Below, in pieces: positions 2,330-32,909 of a stretch of 32,909 bases of DNA. Location: positions 81,576 to 114,484 of the IMG/VR virus record IMGVR_UViG_3300035104_000006; one strand, 5' to 3'. Both the position numbers and the translations under genes were made by a program. Each line of letters begins with the position of its first letter. The stretch's first letter is position 1. This DNA comes from a virus. The notes below the pieces were generated by a model. That model made no database searches, was not told where the DNA came from, and was given only the letters and a program-made list of their open reading frames with translations.

Positions 2330-2506
2330 ATGCTTTATTACATATTTGCATTTCAAATAATTAACTTCCTATTCATTATAAAAGTTCTATCGGAAACTGA
2401 GCACAAAGCTATTCATAAAATATTTTTCCTATGGGTGTATGTATCAGCAGGAACTCTTGATACCATTATTCCAGTAGTTACTGGCTTTATTGGTAGTAAT
2501 TGGTGA
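2330..2506 (+). CDS. small predicted membrane protein (58 aa)
   Basis: Manually translated MLYYIFAFQIINFLFIIKVL...IFFLWVYVSAGTLDTIIPVVTGFIGSNW*. AAGGA RBS, two hydrophobic segments, fills the intergenic gap. Confidence 0.5.
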   Translation: MLYYIFAFQIINFLFIIKVLSETEHKAIHKIFFLWVYVSAGTLDTIIPVVTGFIGSNW

Positions 2507-3356
2507 AGCTATGACAGGGCGTGTGGCGGATAAAAAATCAATAGTCGATCAACAGGTCATCTTCGTGCTTAATCAGCCTGACAAGAAAAAGGAGGGATTA
2601 ATTTCAGGCATTTTTAAGCGGGCGGAGGTACTATTCCTATGCCAGAAACCCCATCCAAATCTCTCTTCCATATCTGATAGAGAGTTACACTACTGGAAGG
2701 AGCTTTTAAGGCGAAACTTGTCCAGAAACTCCTCCATACCAACAGTAGCATCCTTCGGAAGCCTGTCTACTAGAGTATTAACAGGAAAAAATAACGAAGC
2801 TAAATATGCCGGACTGCGAATAAGTCCGATCTTTGAAACTGATGGAAGAGACATTCTAGTAATACCAGACAATATTTCAACAAACACGGAACTTAAAGAA
2901 ATTTTCTTTTTTGAAAATGAAAAGGGTCAAGTAACAATAACCAAAGAGCACTATCTCGACTTAATCTCTCAAGAAGGGTTGAGCGACCTATGTAAATCAG
3001 ATTCCTATCTAATTTATAAAAATGCTAGATATATATTTAACCAATCTTCGTTATATTATCAGGCATATCAAAGGCAACTTAGTCATTTAAAAGGAGTACG
3101 TGGCGGTAGGAAATATATCTGCGCTTCTTGTAAAAAGTCCTTCGTTAAAAAGAATACTCAGCTTGATCATAAAGAGCCAGTTATTGAAATAGGAAAGTCT
3201 AGCTCTGACTATACATGGTACGAGCTAGTATCACGAGTATTCTGTGATATTGATAATCTCGAAGTTCTTTGCAAGAATTGTCATAACAAGAAATCGGCAA
3301 AAGAGGCAGAAGAACGAGCGAAAATTAGACGAGAAAGGAAGAAAAACAATGAGTAA
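2490..3356 (+). CDS. fusion of a degenerate uracil-DNA-glycosylase-like N-terminal domain and a C-terminal HNH endonuclease (start may be ATG 2511)
   Basis: C-terminus CASC...QLDHKEPV...NLEVLCKNCHNKK is a Zn-binding HNH. The N-terminal spacing (C..P.P, EL..W..LL, V.SFG..S.RVLTG, KYAG, LVIP) resembles the family-4 UDG fold. Confidence 0.65.
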   Translation: MVVIGEAMTGRVADKKSIVDQQVIFVLNQPDKKKEGLISGIFKRAEVLFLCQKPHPNLSSISDRELHYWKELLRRNLSRNSSIPTVASFGSLSTRVLTGKNNEAKYAGLRISPIFETDGRDILVIPDNISTNTELKEIFFFENEKGQVTITKEHYLDLISQEGLSDLCKSDSYLIYKNARYIFNQSSLYYQAYQRQLSHLKGVRGGRKYICASCKKSFVKKNTQLDHKEPVIEIGKSSSDYTWYELVSRVFCDIDNLEVLCKNCHNKKSAKEAEERAKIRRERKKNNE

Positions 3357-27435: not shown

Positions 27436-28854
27436 TTATATCTTTGCAAAAGCAGATTCGCTTGCTAACTTTTCGTTCATCAACGTAAATGCCATAGTAT
27501 CACAAGGATTGTCTGCTGTCACCCCTAGGTTGAAATGCCTGTATGTAGAAACCATTAACGAATCACTAAAGTCAGGAGAAAACTTTAGGCGAGATTTAAG
27601 TTTTGGTTTGTCTACAACTTGTATTGGCTGCTTGTCTTCTAAGAAATAGATTTCCGGTAATTCCTGGACGTATCTTTCGTGATAAGGGAGATATAGCTCA
27701 TCGAAATTGTCCGACAATTCTTTATAAAGTTCTGCACGAAGATTTTTATACGCCTCTGGATTATTTGCTCTGGCATTACTTACTACTTTATACACCTTAA
27801 ATGGCTTTTTTGCTCTCTTAAAAAGGTCGTATAAGATAATACCAAGACCGGTATAGTCTATATAAAGTTCCTTCGCTTTCATAGTTTTCATTCTTGCTAT
27901 TACTTTAGGGATTAGCGATGGTCCGTCTGTGTGACTAATTCGTTCTGGTGGAAATATGTAAGCTCCTTTACGAAAAGTAAGGATGGAGTTATCATTTCTT
28001 CCGGCAGACGGGTCGAGACCGGCTACCATTATCCCTTCATGATCTTCAGGATTACTATCTCTCCAACGATTATTTGCCTCTTCGATTTGGTCATAATTTG
28101 CAACTACTTGACCACCTCCACGAGGGAATTCACCTAAGCATTTTGTCCTAAACCAGTCCGACTCTTCTCCATGAATTGTCTTCATTCTTTCAATATATGT
28201 AGGGTCATTGAAAGGAGATCGTTCAGATGATAATGTAACTTGCGCCCATTGACTTTTATTTTTATGAAAACAGTCGTAGAAATAACCATTTGCACGAGTG
28301 GGGTTGCCGACAAGAAGGCAGTAGACGTTCTTCTGAAGCATTGAACCTTCTACGCCTGAATATACCTGATCTGGCACTGCACTTGCCTCATCGACCAGAA
28401 AGAAAAGTGAAGGAGCATGAAAACCTGCAAGCACATCACCTAACTTATCATTACTATCCTTCGGTATAGTTCGACCGACTATAAACCAATCCTTGTATCC
28501 TTCTATATAGATCTTCCCTTTAATTATCTTAATAGACTTTTTAATAAAATCTATTTTTATCCTTCTTACCCAACTTTCTATTTCAGAGAATAAAAGGTCT
28601 TCAAGCTGATGGCCTGTAGGTGCAGTACAGACTACTTTGGCTTCTGGGCGAGTGGTAAAGAACCACAATGCTTTGGTTGCTGCTAGGGCTGTCTTACCGC
28701 ATCCAGTTCCTGACTTAGCAGCTACGAATCTATTATTTACAAACTCATCAGCTACTTTCTTTTGATCCTCAGAAATTGACATTCCAAGCACTTCTTTCGC
28801 CCAAAGCTCGAAATTATCCTGATATCGGTTCATGTATTCTATTACTTCACTCAT
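27436..28854 (-). CDS. terL: terminase large subunit
   Basis: KSGTGCGKT (Walker A), TAPT..Q, GFHA...F.VDEAS (Walker B), GNPTR..GYFY, LGEFP, RNase H-like GLDP...D, SPD..D. Confidence 0.93.
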   Translation of the reverse strand: MSEVIEYMNRYQDNFELWAKEVLGMSISEDQKKVADEFVNNRFVAAKSGTGCGKTALAATKALWFFTTRPEAKVVCTAPTGHQLEDLLFSEIESWVRRIKIDFIKKSIKIIKGKIYIEGYKDWFIVGRTIPKDSNDKLGDVLAGFHAPSLFFLVDEASAVPDQVYSGVEGSMLQKNVYCLLVGNPTRANGYFYDCFHKNKSQWAQVTLSSERSPFNDPTYIERMKTIHGEESDWFRTKCLGEFPRGGGQVVANYDQIEEANNRWRDSNPEDHEGIMVAGLDPSAGRNDNSILTFRKGAYIFPPERISHTDGPSLIPKVIARMKTMKAKELYIDYTGLGIILYDLFKRAKKPFKVYKVVSNARANNPEAYKNLRAELYKELSDNFDELYLPYHERYVQELPEIYFLEDKQPIQVVDKPKLKSRLKFSPDFSDSLMVSTYRHFNLGVTADNPCDTMAFTLMNEKLASESAFAKI

Positions 28855-28933
28855 AATTACCCGCCATTTAAGAATGATACTATTACCGAGTTGTTTCTCG
28901 GATGTTTTCTACTCAGCATGATTTAACACTCTT

Positions 28934-29131
28934 TTAAATATTTCTAGTTATACTGGTCTGCCATTCAAAAGAGCCGTCATTGTCTATATTAAACCATACT
29001 ATTCCGAAATCTACAATACCTGAACATTGTTCGAGGCCGAATTTAGTATTCGGTGTTTGTAGTGCAGGCAGAAGGTGCGGTGCCACACCGGGGATACTGC
29101 CGTTGAAGTTTACTCTGCGTATGATAGCCAT
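28934..29131 (-). pseudogene. 65-codon ORF spanning the GC junction; probable chimera of two gene fragments
   Basis: GAGGGG RBS and ATG. The first ~22 codons are GC-rich (MAIIRRVNFNGSIPGVAPHLLP) and the remainder is AT-rich. Confidence 0.45.
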
Positions 29132-29179
29132 ATATTACCCCTCACGAAAGTGTGTAAAACTTATCCACTTTTTTGATTG

Positions 29180-29776
29180 CTACACCTCAAACACCGGCAA
29201 TTCACCCAGCAATTCATCCACCGTAGGCGTTGCCCTGGTGCCGCTCTTTACATCGGCCAGAATGTTCCGTGCAGCTTCCCATACGTCCACGTTCCACGCC
29301 CACACTGCGGCGCAGAATTGATAGTGAGTATAGGCGGTATCGTCTGCGTAGTTTTTGCAGCTATGCACGTCTCGGAATGCTGTGCCGTTGGCTTTGTTGT
29401 AGGCATCCACCTCTTCCTGTATCAGCTCAGTGACCAGCTGTTCGTACTCCCACAGCTTGTTGCTGTTGCTCAAATCAATCTGTTGCGTGAAGCTGTCGGG
29501 CAAGCCTTCGCTCACAATTCCGGACTCAACGTAGTTAGCCACCGCGCTGTAAAAACCTTCTGCGATCCCGGCAACGTTGCAAAGTTCAAGGCGGTCAAGC
29601 TGTGCCTGGGTAGGGGTAACTTCGATAAATTTAAGCCCTTCGTGGTGCCACCACCGATTAACAAAGCTTTCCCACCATTTAGGGCTGTTGGTGTATGAAC
29701 GCTTGAGTTTGCCGTATGCGCGATACTCTGCAATCTTGGGGCAAATGTGCCACTTGTCATCCTGATAAAAAACCAT
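29180..29776 (-). CDS. hypothetical tail-fibre-associated protein (198 aa)
   Basis: Start directly abuts the HNH stop (TAA-ATG). C-terminal 'W...VW......LADV..G.R..PT..ELL.ELP' is common in genes next to tail fibres. Confidence 0.65.
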   Translation of the reverse strand: MVFYQDDKWHICPKIAEYRAYGKLKRSYTNSPKWWESFVNRWWHHEGLKFIEVTPTQAQLDRLELCNVAGIAEGFYSAVANYVESGIVSEGLPDSFTQQIDLSNSNKLWEYEQLVTELIQEEVDAYNKANGTAFRDVHSCKNYADDTAYTHYQFCAAVWAWNVDVWEAARNILADVKSGTRATPTVDELLGELPVFEV

Positions 29777-30520
29777 TTATGTCTCCATACTTAGGTGTAC
29801 TTGATTATCTGCGAAGCGTAGATAGTCTTCTGCGTTGAAATCTGTGTAAGAATGTGTTTGGTGAAACAATCTATGGCAGTCGACACATAGCGTGACACCG
29901 TTATCAATGCTTACACGCTCCTTTGGGGTTGAGTGGTACGGGTTTAAGTGATGCGCTTCCAGCCTTTTACAGCTACTACCGCAAGCTTGACAGGCGTACT
30001 CGTCTCTTTCGTACACCGCAGCCCTCCATTCTCGATAGTCCTTTCTCGCCATCTCCGCATATCTTTTTCCGCTAACGCCACCCTTCCAGTTGGGATGGTT
30101 CTCACCCCTTCCAACAAACTGTTCAGCTTTCGTCTTGAATGTCTCTTTTCTCAAGCACCCACACGACCTCTTGCGGCCCCCTGTGAGTGTCCAGTTAACC
30201 ACCTCTTGCCTCACGCCACAGTCGCACTCAACCAGAGACATGTTGACGCCTGCCGCCCCCAATACCGTGAGCCTGCCGTACCTAGCCCCCGGCTTTAAGG
30301 TTTTCCTTCTTGGTATGTTTAGGCACTTGGAACATAAGCCGGTGAAGGTAGTTTGTGAAAGCTTGCTGAAGGGTACATGCCTTTCCTTCTCGCAAATCGG
30401 ACACGAAAACCGCACCAGGTAGTTACTGCCGGGCAGTAGCTCTGAAACTGGCTTTTCCCTACCACTCCTTGCATTGTATGCCACATCTGATGTTATGCGG
30501 TCGTAAAGATTATTTCGCAT
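29777..30520 (-). CDS. HNH (homing-type) endonuclease with N-terminal Zn-ribbon DNA-binding modules
   Basis: CPIC...CSKC; YGRLTV...CDCG...SCGC; GENHPNWKGG; V.ERD.Y.CQ.CG...LEAHH...NGVTLC..CH..FH; GAGG RBS. Confidence 0.9.
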   Translation of the reverse strand: MRNNLYDRITSDVAYNARSGREKPVSELLPGSNYLVRFSCPICEKERHVPFSKLSQTTFTGLCSKCLNIPRRKTLKPGARYGRLTVLGAAGVNMSLVECDCGVRQEVVNWTLTGGRKRSCGCLRKETFKTKAEQFVGRGENHPNWKGGVSGKRYAEMARKDYREWRAAVYERDEYACQACGSSCKRLEAHHLNPYHSTPKERVSIDNGVTLCVDCHRLFHQTHSYTDFNAEDYLRFADNQVHLSMET

Positions 30521-30533
30521 CGCGCCCTCAATT

Positions 30534-30607
30534 TATTGGCATTCGCATTGTCGGCATCATTCGTGTTGAAGTCAGCGACACCGTTGTTCCCACGGTTGAC
30601 ACGCCTT
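30534..30607 (-). repeat. DGR template repeat (TR), 3'-truncated
   Basis: 74-bp ungapped match to 31085-31158 with 12 mismatches, 10 of them at TR adenines on the minus strand. Contains 8 AAY codons in the VR frame and lies just downstream of avd. Confidence 0.93.
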
Positions 30608-30629
30608 TTGCAGCAATATCCCTATTTGG

Positions 30630-30971
30630 TTACGCTCGTGCGCTCTGCCGGATATAACCGGAAAGCAACTTGTTAATCTCACGGATTCGCTCATCGATGA
30701 TCTGGAAGAACCCTTTGCTGATATACCGGCGCTCGCGTGATAGCTTCATCAGAACCTTCAGGGCCTGCAGGTGCCCATCCGCTTCTTGCAAATACGTCTT
30801 GCGCTTGCTCTTCACCGAGTTGCCGAGATAGATGTATTTGATTACATCGAAAAACGCCTCTTTGATACGTGCAGCGAGGGCGTACTTCTCAGCTTTCGGG
30901 TAATTAACCAGGCGCGGGTATACCTGATACAAAAGTTCTTCCGCTTTTTGCTTTACGATAAGTTCCTGCAT
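30630..30971 (-). CDS. avd: DGR accessory variability determinant (Avd, four-helix bundle)
   Basis: 113 aa, basic; L....K..E...Y, YPK.EKYAL..RI, K..YL.EAD..L..LK..., YIS, EI.KLL.G.I; sits between VR and TR. Confidence 0.9.
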   Translation of the reverse strand: MQELIVKQKAEELLYQVYPRLVNYPKAEKYALAARIKEAFFDVIKYIYLGNSVKSKRKTYLQEADGHLQALKVLMKLSRERRYISKGFFQIIDERIREINKLLSGYIRQSARA

Positions 30972-30980
30972 AACAATCCT

Positions 30981-31046
30981 GTTAGGTTAAGGGCTTTCGC
31001 CTTCGCTCCAGCCCGTGAGAATGTAGGGTTAAGGTACGTCACAGGC
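30981..31046 (-). promoter_or_regulatory. inverted-repeat region downstream of the VR (candidate DGR target-recognition hairpin)
   Basis: Minus strand GCCTGTGA...TCACGGGC begins immediately after the target stop; an overlapping GGGCT...AGCCC stem follows. Confidence 0.5.
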
Positions 31047-32711
31047 TTACGCCTGGACAACTTCAAGACAGGGGCGGAAGCCGATATTGGCATTCGCATA
31101 GTCGGCGGTATACGGGCCGAAGTCAGCGACACCGAGGTTCCCACGGAGGACACGCCTTGTCGTGTCGGAACCCTGCTCTTGGCACCAACAAGCAGTTCCA
31201 TCGCCTGCATCGGTGTAAAACACCTGCAATTCGGCGTTTGTATATGTCGCCCAGTTGTCGCCATCCTGCGGCCCGCCGTGGCGTGTGGTTTCGCTACCGC
31301 CTTCCATGCCGATTGTTGCATCTGTGCATGTTGGCACTGCTGTATGCACGCGATACAACAAGTCGTTCCATTCGGATCCGCCACCAGCGTCATCAGCGCA
31401 CGATTGGTTGTTATACGCTTCGGCTGCCGGGTCGGTTGCGGAGCCGGTTAAGAGCCGCACTTTGTACGTTGTCGTTCCATATATTACCTGTGCATTCTGT
31501 GTTGCCGTTGTGCCTGTGCTTGCGCTGGCCGTGCCGTTGTCGCCCGTACCGTACACTGCTCCGGCGAGATAGATATCATCCCATGACAAGTTGTTGCGGA
31601 TGGTCTCCTTGGCGATGAACAGTACTTTCGCCACGCCGTCTTTGTTGCAATCAGCTGCGGGGCCAACATAAAATTTCAGCCAGCCCGCATCGTTATTGAA
31701 CGCTGTTCCCGCGCTCAGACCGATGTCACTTGCGAGGGTTGGCCCGTCTGTCAGGCTTGCAGAGGAGACTAGCCCCATGTATCCGGTGTCGGTTGTCGAA
31801 TCGTAATTACCAGCCGCAACCATCGCGTCGTAATCGTCACCTGGACCCCAATCGAAGAAACTGGCGGCTGTGGTATAAGTCGCGGTAGCTTTTGTTGAAT
31901 CACCATAAGTAGTGCCAGTATGTATTACTTCTAGTCTATATTCCGTACTAGTAGCAACTGTCCCCGAGGGTAAATCAATACTTGTAAGATTGGTAGTATC
32001 ATTCACGCTCGACCATATCAGGGTTTCATCGCTTGTGCGGTACAGATACCAGCTTGAGCTTTCGTGTGTGTCTGTGCCGTTGATGCACTCAAAAGCGTCA
32101 GTAGTGAAGGTCGGTGTTTCGCCCACATCGGTTGAGCCGTTCGTGGGGTTGGTAATGGTAGGCTGGTCAATGTAAATATCCGCCGTGGTGAATGAAATGG
32201 TCGGTGTCCAGTCTGACCATGTACCGTCATCGTCCTGATACATGCCCCTAACGAAATACTCAGTTACGGTGCTGAGGCTCGAGCTTGGAGTGTATTCACT
32301 GACTGCGCCCAGGGTTGTGTCTGCAACGGTAGTTGCGAAGTCGCTTACAGTGCTGACCTGCACCCTCAATGCCTGCTGCGGTTTCCCGTACAGGCTGTAA
32401 TAAGGGCTGAAAGTAATTGTAGGAGTTAGCAGGACTCCTGTTGCTCCGTCTAGTGGGGAGATTATCTCTGGGGTGAGTATAGCTGCAATATCTGAAGTTA
32501 CAGCTATACGTTCCCATGTATCAACAGCAACGCAGAAGTAAACACAGCCAGATTCAACAGCATAATCACCCTTGCGCCCTGATGCTGTAGCAGATGCAGG
32601 TACATCTACAAGGCGTCCATAATTCTTCTTATCCTCCGTAGCCATCGTACCCAGCATACCATTGGTTGGTACATGCTCAGGCTTGCGGCCTACTTTAACT
32701 ACGCTGCTCAT
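31047..32711 (-). CDS. DGR target protein: putative receptor-binding virion protein with two FN3/Ig-like repeats and a C-terminal CLec-like variable domain
   Basis: C-terminus RRVLRG...NIGFRPCLEV carries the VR. Two ~100-aa repeats (P.I..P..G.T.V...PT...Y......FTTA/YTTA). N-terminal fibre-type motifs VPTNGMLGTMA and PASATASG..G...Y.CVA..TW.R. Confidence 0.85.
   Translation of the reverse strand: MSSVVKVGRKPEHVPTNGMLGTMATEDKKNYGRLVDVPASATASGRKGDYAVESGCVYFCVAVDTWERIAVTSDIAAILTPEIISPLDGATGVLLTPTITFSPYYSLYGKPQQALRVQVSTVSDFATTVADTTLGAVSEYTPSSSLSTVTEYFVRGMYQDDDGTWSDWTPTISFTTADIYIDQPTITNPTNGSTDVGETPTFTTDAFECINGTDTHESSSWYLYRTSDETLIWSSVNDTTNLTSIDLPSGTVATSTEYRLEVIHTGTTYGDSTKATATYTTAASFFDWGPGDDYDAMVAAGNYDSTTDTGYMGLVSSASLTDGPTLASDIGLSAGTAFNNDAGWLKFYVGPAADCNKDGVAKVLFIAKETIRNNLSWDDIYLAGAVYGTGDNGTASASTGTTATQNAQVIYGTTTYKVRLLTGSATDPAAEAYNNQSCADDAGGGSEWNDLLYRVHTAVPTCTDATIGMEGGSETTRHGGPQDGDNWATYTNAELQVFYTDAGDGTACWCQEQGSDTTRRVLRGNLGVADFGPYTADYANANIGFRPCLEVVQA
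31085..31158 (-). repeat. DGR variable repeat (VR)
   Basis: Matches the TR with A-to-N substitutions (AAC>CTC twice, AAC>GGC, ACG>CCG, AAT>TAT twice); followed by the GC-rich GGCTTCCGCCCC IMH-type segment. Confidence 0.93.
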
Positions 32712-32909
32712 TTACGCACCTCCTATTACGCCGAAGCGTTGCGGGGGAGTTACTTGTATTTGGTTGCCTTCTCCGTCATCTGTCATGTAGGGAGCGGTTG
32801 AGTAGACGGATTCGTACTTGTCGTTAAGGGCGGTGTCGTTGAAGATAGTGGAGTAAAGAGTATCTGCTGTACCCTTGCCTGTGAACGGTGCTTCCGCTAA
32901 TACCTCTAC
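32712..32909 (-). CDS. C-terminal part of a hypothetical protein (5' end outside window)
   Basis: Frame is open from the window edge: ...APFTGKGTADTLYSTIF...PPQRFGVIGGA*. Its stop abuts the target gene ATG, and GGAGG within its end serves as RBS. Confidence 0.65.
   Translation of the reverse strand, partial: VEVLAEAPFTGKGTADTLYSTIFNDTALNDKYESVYSTAPYMTDDGEGNQIQVTPPQRFGVIGGA

Follow-up and report, generated by a model that had tools for sequence, protein, structure and literature searches.

In the phage DNA analyzed here, a segment that carries a free-standing HNH endonuclease gene has replaced the reverse transcriptase (RT), the spacer in front of it and the 3′ end of the template repeat (TR) in a diversity-generating retroelement (DGR). 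The DGR lies within a stretch of 32,909 nucleotides (hereafter the window) that makes up the last 32.9 kb, positions 81,576 to 114,484, of the 114,484-nt IMG/VR virus record IMGVR_UViG_3300035104_000006, which is classed as linear and estimated to be 87% complete. The ancestral cassette consisted of a target gene with its variable region (VR), the accessory gene avd, the TR, the spacer, the RT gene and a conserved downstream gene for a 198-aa protein, here called p198, and the replacement can be read directly from the comparison with RT-bearing relatives, above all the IMG/VR contig 3300035547_000012 (L001). Taken as a whole, the locus is in all likelihood a dead DGR that was killed when a gene of the homing-endonuclease type took the place of its RT.

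Genes were called from open reading frames (ORFs) together with Pfam profiles and PHROG families, and structures were examined with an AlphaFold model, with Foldseek and with a search against solved structures that reports Z scores. The p198 protein was used as the anchor for recovering relatives, and relatives of avd were also gathered in IMG/VR. Two further contigs encode exactly the same p198 protein, namely L080 (JGI 3300035042 contig Ga0376516_00145, 53.9 kb) and L081 (Logan contig SRR11802875_2388, 27.5 kb). All features of the DGR locus are on the minus strand of the window, and on this strand the order is the target gene with its C-terminal VR, a hairpin, avd, the TR, the HNH gene and p198, followed by the large terminase (TerL) and portal genes. 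This cassette had been recognized in a preliminary description of the same DNA, and every feature that it gave is present where it had been placed; the TR is there as well, although the description made no mention of the missing guanine-plus-cytosine-rich (GC-rich) element at its 3′ end. The features are listed below, where IMH stands for initiation of mutagenic homing.

31047..32711, minus strand: DGR target gene (554 aa) of the tail-fibre/virion-protein type, called as an ORF and matching PHROG virion and tail families.
31085..31158, minus strand: VR, within the last ~40 codons of the target gene, 84% identical to the TR.
31064..31084, minus strand: GC-rich IMH-like element containing GGCTTCCGCCCCTGT, directly 3′ of the VR, with a counterpart at the TR 3′ end in L001 and in the relative L066.
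31038..31058, minus strand: hairpin CAGGC-GTAA-GCCTG with a 5-bp stem and a 4-nt loop, over the target stop codon.
30630..30971, minus strand: avd (accessory variability determinant), 113 aa, intact; Pfam bAvd E=6.6e-18, phrog_3206 'Avd protein of DGR' E=5.7e-23.
30534..30607, minus strand: TR remnant of 74 nt, cut off at its 3′ end, without the IMH*-like GC-rich element and the ~140-nt TR-RT spacer.
29825..30533, minus strand: inserted 709-nt segment with the HNH gene, delimited by pairwise alignment; GC content 0.50, like its flanks.
29777..30520, minus strand: HNH endonuclease ORF, 247 aa; Pfam HNH (E=2.2e-6) and HNH_2, and many PHROG HNH families.
29180..29776, minus strand: p198, 198 aa, with no Pfam or PHROG match; conserved on the right of the slot in relatives with and without a DGR.
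28934..29131, minus strand: 65-aa fusion ORF at the right end of a GC-rich module, with its junction near 29066-29071; the same in contigs L080/L082 and in L081.

The comparison with L001 carries the main finding. L001, which comes from a metagenome of the same IMG numbering series as the window, has the order target, avd, TR, 355-aa ORF and p198, and its 355-aa ORF encodes a reverse transcriptase that matches RVT_1 (E=9.5e-23) and has a YADD motif. The metagenome contig L066 likewise has the order avd-TR-RT-p198. On the left flank, L001 is 99.2% identical to window positions 31069-30547 (4 differences in 523 nt), and on the right flank, from 15 nt past the right junction, it is identical to window positions 29809-29613 (0 differences in 197 nt). 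Between the two flanks the window has the 709-nt segment, while L001 has 1179 nt that comprise the GC-rich 3′ end of the TR, a spacer of ~140 nt and the RT gene from codon 1 to about codon 340. The GC-rich continuation of the TR in L001 matches the sequence that follows the VR.

A piece of the RT has stayed behind at the right junction. The last 15 residues of the window HNH ORF (29777-29824) are residues 341-355 of the L001 RT, so that the HNH reading frame continues into the leftover RT tail and uses the RT stop codon. The same 15-residue tail is found in the L066 RT, and the alignment with the 44%-identical RT of L063 extends to residue 354/355. The tail therefore belonged to the RT originally, and the HNH allele descends from an RT allele. 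The replacement has defined boundaries, is recent and is present in several assemblies. Among three options, the preliminary description had considered it most parsimonious that a homing endonuclease had replaced the RT and frozen the DGR, and the near-identical flanks of the RT-bearing alleles (L001 and L066), the RT tail and the joint loss of the TR end and spacer all speak for that option.

No DGR-clade RT is encoded in the cassette. No ORF with RT motifs had been noticed in the window before, and a search with the RVT_1 profile, which gave no match on the whole 114,484-nt record, extends this absence to the rest of the record. A tblastn search of the record with the L001 RT recovered the last 15 residues only, and no RT was found on a 12-kb extension past the record end that is supplied by the JGI contig L082. 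There is also no second copy of the TR or VR on the 114-kb record. The arrangement that would have made this an ordinary split DGR, with an RT and a full-length TR elsewhere on the contig, is consequently not found on the record.

The template itself is also incomplete. The window TR ends before GGCTTCCGCCCCTGT, which is present after the window VR and in the TRs of L001 and L066. Instead of a TR that runs through the GC-rich 3′ element and is followed by a spacer before an RT, the window has the ATG of the HNH gene 13 nt past the end of the TR match. The cassette therefore lacks three parts on which mutagenic retrohoming depends, namely the RT, the TR 3′ element and the TR-RT spacer. In work on the Bordetella phage BPP-1, the RNA downstream of the TR, of which the spacer is a part, was reportedly needed to prime cDNA synthesis, and a borrowed RT would therefore probably not rescue the truncated template. 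With both the RT and a complete TR missing, two features that define a working DGR, the locus is best regarded as a DGR remnant. It can be said with high confidence that the DGR would no longer be able to diversify its target and that the VR has stayed fixed as it was last written, and, as judged from its sequence, the cassette is very probably switched off.

What is left of the cassette still shows the adenine pattern of a DGR. Over 74 nt the TR and VR differ by 12 mismatches, 10 of them at TR adenines, and over the 75 alignable columns there are mismatches at 11 of 24 TR adenines compared to 2 of 51 other positions (Fisher test, p=2.6e-5). The accessory gene avd is retained as well. The window Avd protein is 100% identical to that of L001, and the DNA differs at two bases, both synonymous. 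That avd remains intact had been singled out in the preliminary description as notable if the RT had been replaced, and the two synonymous differences to L001 offer an explanation: with high confidence, avd is still intact only because the replacement, or the last exchange with an RT-bearing allele, was recent. Both avd and the TR stub are recent relics.

When homologous loci were compared for the presence of an RT or an HNH gene, as had been suggested in the preliminary description, all 13 IMG/VR avd relatives (58-100% identity) had an RT directly after the TR, none of the 13 had an HNH gene, and several then carried a p198 homolog. The slot is polymorphic at one locus among close relatives: it holds the HNH gene in the window, L080 and L081, an RT in L001 and L066, nothing in L002 and L065, a different HNH gene in L088 and a related HNH gene in L071. 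An IMG/VR search with the exact TR-HNH junction string gave no match among the records accessible to it.

The architecture of the window had been open to the objection that it might occur only once, and L071, where an HNH gene is again found in the same slot, answers it. On L071, a 989-nt ENA contig of 34% GC, the closest homolog of the window HNH protein (65% identity) is encoded between an avd remnant and a homolog of p198 (47-53% identity). A 1-nt frameshift disrupts the avd remnant, which has also lost its last ~ten codons, and L071 has no TR. These features make L071 look like the expected later stage of decay, reached in a second, well-diverged and AT-rich lineage.

Relatives that have no DGR show other states of the slot. 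In L002 and L065 the target leads directly to p198, without avd, TR or RT, and L002 is from a complete 57-kb genome with terminal repeats that has no RT. VR-like segments of the two (L002 7764-7858 and L065 1405-1491) show 12-20 differences at A vs 2-7 elsewhere when compared to the L066 and window TRs, and the IMH-like element is not conserved in either. This suggests that they may be targets whose DGR was deleted outright. In L088, a 146-aa ORF (2737-3177) occupies the target-p198 gap with no DGR parts around it; it belongs to no Pfam family and matches the HNH family phrog_374 (E=5e-43). The target-p198 gap is a general landing site for endonuclease genes.

Another setting for this family was found in L079 (222-6976; a 254-kb contig) and L074 (1095-4379), where an HNH homolog with 33-37% identity to the window protein lies ~560 nt from a TR and on the other strand. 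The DGR of L079/L074 has a 419-aa RT, a TR at L079 5340-5444 and two large targets, and the mismatches between the TR and the VRs of these targets, 12 in one and 14 in the other, are confined to adenines. This jumbo-phage-like DGR is active-looking. A short ORF made of degenerate VR-like repeats adjoins the HNH homolog of L079/L074.

The HNH gene of the window has its own ribosome-binding site, and its stop codon adjoins the start of p198 as TAAATG. The encoded protein has an N-terminal region of ~150 extra residues with two Cys-rich, zinc-ribbon-like modules, followed by the C-terminal HNH domain. In an alignment of 12 HNH sequences, H190, H191, N207 and the CxxC pairs are invariant, and the HNH motif with its zinc-binding cysteines is intact in the window and frameshifted in one population (L080). 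The C-terminal domain (about residues 155-225) was matched by Foldseek to the GVE2 HNH protein 5h0m and to T5 SciA 9qgx and has the beta-beta-alpha-metal HNH fold. With the whole protein as query, matches were limited to this C-terminal domain and did not extend to the N-terminal modules. Distant homologs occur in unrelated phage contexts; those at ~30% identity are found in SPO1-like Bacillus phages, Staphylococcus myoviruses and Vibrio phages, and one homolog (P0012) is located between small and large terminase genes. The GC content of the HNH segment equals that of its flanks both in the window (0.50) and in L071 (0.34), and the gene is therefore no newcomer to either lineage. An Rfam scan of positions 28500-32909 gave no match, and in particular none to an intron around the HNH gene, and a scan for promoters and terminators stayed at chance level.

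A second HNH-containing ORF of the window (2490-3356, 288 aa, with the motif at its C-terminus) lies directly upstream of a family A DNA polymerase gene. BLAST showed no relationship between this ORF and the 247-aa HNH protein.

The manner in which the HNH gene arrived can be approached from the bases next to the junctions. The 709-nt segment with its free-standing endonuclease gene has replaced 1179 nt of an RT-bearing allele. In the proposed mechanism, the gene would be a homing-type selfish element that spreads during co-infection by cutting RT-bearing or empty alleles of the tail-fibre/p198 slot, and it would then be copied in by way of the flanking homology, dragging a few flanking bases along. 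The differences between the window and L001 are clustered near the insertion: the adjoining 13 nt on its left and the adjoining 15 nt on its right contain three each, compared to a background farther out of 4 in 523 nt on the left and 0 in 197 nt on the right, or about 0.5% divergence. In a co-conversion test that could use these six bases only, 5 of the 6 junction-adjacent variants matched the L066 allele, as would be expected if a donor with L066-like flanks had left short co-conversion tracts. Taken together with the polymorphism of the slot, the homologs in unrelated contexts, the invariant catalytic and zinc-binding residues and the HNH fold, this makes it about as likely as not that the HNH gene is of the homing type and passes from allele to allele of the slot.

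A narrower version of this mechanism would be that the HNH lineage preys specifically on DGR cassettes, cutting RT-bearing alleles in or near the TR-spacer-RT region when phages co-infect a cell and replacing the RT with itself. It is brought up by the recurrence in L071, the homolog inside the active-looking DGR of L079/L074 and the mosaic tracts at the junctions, and we consider it possible but rather doubtful. If it is true, hypermutation of the tail fibre would be turned off in the recipient, and RT-on and HNH-off alleles would co-circulate as a polymorphism in phage evolvability.

Several observations weigh against a dead DGR that was inactivated by homing. The homing step is one that we infer, and the co-conversion argument for it rests on six bases; the data are explained nearly as well if the replacement happened once, long ago, and its flanks later recombined with RT-bearing alleles. 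An additional G within a run of five G (window ~30182) splits the HNH gene of L080 (L080 5256-6000) into ORFs of 132 aa and 125 aa. This 1-nt frameshift is either early decay in one population or a homopolymer error, and it suggests that the HNH gene may not be under strong selection everywhere. The VR is identical across the three assemblies (window, L080 and L081), which leans against DGR activity, but since the assemblies may represent a single population, their identical consensus VRs are only a weak sign that the VR is frozen. The two non-adenine TR/VR mismatches of the window were considered as a sign of decay after inactivation, and this idea was dropped, because such mismatches also occur in the RT-bearing L001 (3) and L066 (1); they are no proof of decay. 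Finally, the structure of the record around a repeated block of tail genes (record ~56.7-67.8 kb) is ambiguous, and an RT could conceivably be encoded on the unseen part of the 87%-complete record, in a co-infecting phage or in the host.

This last point leads to the option, also raised in the preliminary description, of a non-autonomous DGR in which the target, avd and TR are still used and the RT is provided in trans by another DGR in the phage, by a co-infecting phage or by the host. The intact avd and the preserved adenine pattern of the TR and VR would agree with such a system, as would the estimated completeness of 87% and the occurrence of RT-bearing relatives with a 100%-identical Avd (L001) in samples of the same IMG numbering series. 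However, neither the 114-kb record nor the 12-kb extension contains an RVT_1/RT homolog, the TR is without its GC-rich 3′ element and the whole spacer, and recency, as seen in the two synonymous differences to L001, is enough to explain the intact avd. The older HNH locus L071 has neither a working avd nor a TR. The supply of an RT in trans is accordingly very improbable. Even less credit can be given to the remaining option of the preliminary description, an RT-free system in which the HNH protein cuts near the VR or TR and promotes TR-to-VR conversion or some other form of diversification. An active-looking nuclease does stand beside a TR and an intact avd, which is an argument from position only, and a distant homolog is found inside the active-looking DGR of L079/L074. 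Plain conversion, however, would erase the differences between TR and VR, and 13 of these remain, 11 of them at adenines. The homology left for conversion amounts to 74 nt at 84% with the 3′ anchor gone, the VR is identical in three assemblies, the HNH gene is frameshifted in one of them, and L071 has kept the HNH gene and lost the TR. A nuclease-driven system is therefore extremely improbable.

The position of the HNH gene near TerL raises the question of a function in DNA packaging, in which case the HNH protein would mainly be a packaging nuclease of the HK97 gp74/GVE2 type that was recruited beside the terminase, with the loss of the RT as collateral damage. The gene order HNH-p198-65 aa-TerL-portal, the GVE2 HNH protein 5h0m as the best solved-structure match of the HNH domain and the location of P0012 between terminase genes agree with this. 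In the relatives, however, no small HNH gene is conserved beside the terminase genes: no HNH gene accompanies the p198-family gene, the phosphoesterase-like gene and TerL in the TerL relative L068, the HNH gene is frameshifted in the otherwise identical phage of L080, and other homologs are found in non-packaging contexts, while the L071 sequence stops at the start of its p198 homolog. The protein is also twice the size of the gp74 type and has N-terminal zinc-ribbon modules. A packaging function is quite improbable, and it would leave the replacement of the RT unchanged. It was also considered whether the assembler had wrongly joined in the HNH segment or even all of the GC-rich end of the record, since the GC content jumps from 0.38 to 0.51 at ~29070 inside the fusion ORF, the module is 3.8 kb from the contig end and the last 290 nt repeat an internal segment. 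On these grounds (the GC jump, the fusion ORF and the nearby contig end) a chimeric contig was at first judged to be fairly likely, and this view was withdrawn because two other assemblies have the same junctions. The sequence and its junctions are internal to the 53.9-kb JGI contig and are found again in the independent Logan contig. Both flanks of the HNH gene are collinear with L001, and for an artefact to give this picture, two precise chimeric joins would have to lie 709 nt from each other and also create an in-frame ORF. An assembly artefact is thus scarcely credible, and the replacement of the RT by the HNH gene in a now inactive DGR remains the preferred explanation.

The target gene has the properties expected of a DGR target. 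An AlphaFold model of its C-terminal 255 residues (residues 300-554; window 31047-31811) reached a mean predicted local distance difference test score (pLDDT) of 93.5. In the search against solved structures, the best match was TvpA 2y3c (Z 7.3, root-mean-square deviation 4.7 Å, 160 aligned residues), and matches were also found to Mtd 1yu0-1yu4 (Z about 6), to TaqVP 5vf4 (Z 5.7), to proteins of the FGE family and to classical lectins; TvpA, Mtd and TaqVP are all variable proteins of DGRs. The Z scores are middling and the set of matches is coherent, and the model thus points to the DGR-type C-type-lectin/FGE-like fold that is usual for phage DGR targets. In this predicted structure, the VR lies inside a lectin-type ligand-binding domain at the C-terminus of the target. 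The hairpin behind the VR is kept in the DGR-bearing alleles L001 and L066 and is not present in the DGR-less L002 and L065, and its folding energy is not exceptional (z=-1.4). Proteins of 304-952 aa whose N-terminal parts are unrelated also carry the lectin-type C-terminal domain (60 hits), a pattern that would be expected of a receptor-binding module that is shuffled among tail proteins.

Homologs of p198 directly follow the RT, the HNH gene or the target in the relatives. A match in the Atlas to Caudo_TAP_N and DUF4376, with scores of 0.82-0.87, is a weak lead to p198 as a candidate tail-fibre assembly protein. The homolog P0022 is 94% identical to p198, and its look-up gave no contig.

The DGR-bearing tail-fibre module differs in composition from the rest of the record, and the GC content changes from 0.38 in the first 110.6 kb to 0.51 in the last 3.8 kb. 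The change near 29070 falls inside the 65-aa ORF, of which the N-terminus corresponds to an internal virion protein of the L001 type and the C-terminal ~46 residues to a 243-aa phosphoesterase-like protein. In L068, the phosphoesterase-like protein is complete and is encoded just upstream of TerL, and the second gene before TerL belongs to the p198 family, so that a module in this place is nothing unusual for the phage group. L080 is 99.98% identical to the window over 9.7 kb, with the locus internal to the contig, and L081 is 100% identical over 8.6 kb. The only differences between L080 and the window are one substitution in a structural gene and the extra G in the HNH gene. The TR-HNH, HNH-p198 and module-TerL junctions are reproduced in both L080 and L081. 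Identical junctions in three assemblies argue against misassembly and indicate that the GC-rich module is a genuine import into an AT-rich phage by illegitimate recombination.

Outside the window, the record contains a second, DGR-less copy of the tail module (record 53472-58371, L083), with genes for proteins of 924 aa, 139 aa, 382 aa (target-like) and 167 aa (p198-like). The last 290 nt of the record (window 32620-32909) are 97% identical to record positions 55085-55374, and in L082 the DGR module and TerL instead directly adjoin a sequence that corresponds to record positions 65572-56760 (4 mismatches). The tail block may be an 11-kb repeat, it may exist as two structural variants, or the 114-kb record may merge two genomes. 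A second DNA polymerase gene (phrog_17, E=2.3e-88) at record 33326-34870, found in addition to the family A polymerase gene of the window, bears on the question of a single genome. That the record consists of two copies of one genome placed head to tail was ruled out, as its halves share only six short matches.

The pair formed by the window and L001 is of interest beyond the single locus. Surveys of DGRs start from the RT, and cassettes that have lost it are invisible to them. Here, two alleles with flanks that are 99-100% identical form a natural pair, one with an RT and the other with an endonuclease gene, and the pair shows one concrete route by which hypermutation in a phage is switched off. 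Together with L071 it gives an order of decay, in which the RT and the TR end are lost first, followed by avd and the rest of the TR. The pair could also help to find out how much a phage gains in nature from having a DGR, and the space that separates the tail-fibre gene from the gene downstream of it emerges as a landing site for selfish nucleases.

In the papers searched for DGRs with HNH or homing endonucleases, no report was found of an endonuclease gene that replaces a DGR RT. In its remaining parts, the locus is similar to the DGR of Bordetella phage BPP-1 (mtd-avd-TR-brt) and to related phage DGRs whose targets have a C-type-lectin fold. The VR takes up the very C-terminal end of a lectin/FGE-like domain and is followed by a GC-rich IMH-like element and a hairpin, avd and a TR with adenine-specific differences are located downstream, and the order is the same up to the TR. 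In contrast to BPP-1, the window has no RT, no TR 3′ element and no TR-RT spacer, and an HNH gene is found at the position of the RT.

Free-standing homing endonuclease genes are known from large lytic phages, such as the Seg and Mob families of T4 and the HNH enzyme I-HmuI of SPO1-like phages. The HNH gene of the window resembles them as a stand-alone gene with its own ribosome-binding site and start codon, in its polymorphism of presence, absence and replacement, and in the foreign-looking bases at both junctions, and the same slot holds unrelated HNH genes in relatives. Classical homing genes insert between genes or into introns and their neighbours still work, whereas the insertion in the window removed a gene and part of a non-coding template and in this way destroyed a domesticated retroelement. 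The HNH domain shares its fold and zinc site with the GVE2 HNH protein 5h0m and the T5 nicking endonuclease SciA 9qgx (Foldseek probability 1.0, target TM-scores of 0.66 and 0.51, respectively), but the similarity in sequence is marginal (E=0.008), and unlike these proteins the window protein has the additional N-terminal region of 150 residues with its two Cys-rich modules. In summary, the locus appears to combine two known kinds of element, a DGR and a free-standing endonuclease gene, rather than to represent a new mechanism of diversification.

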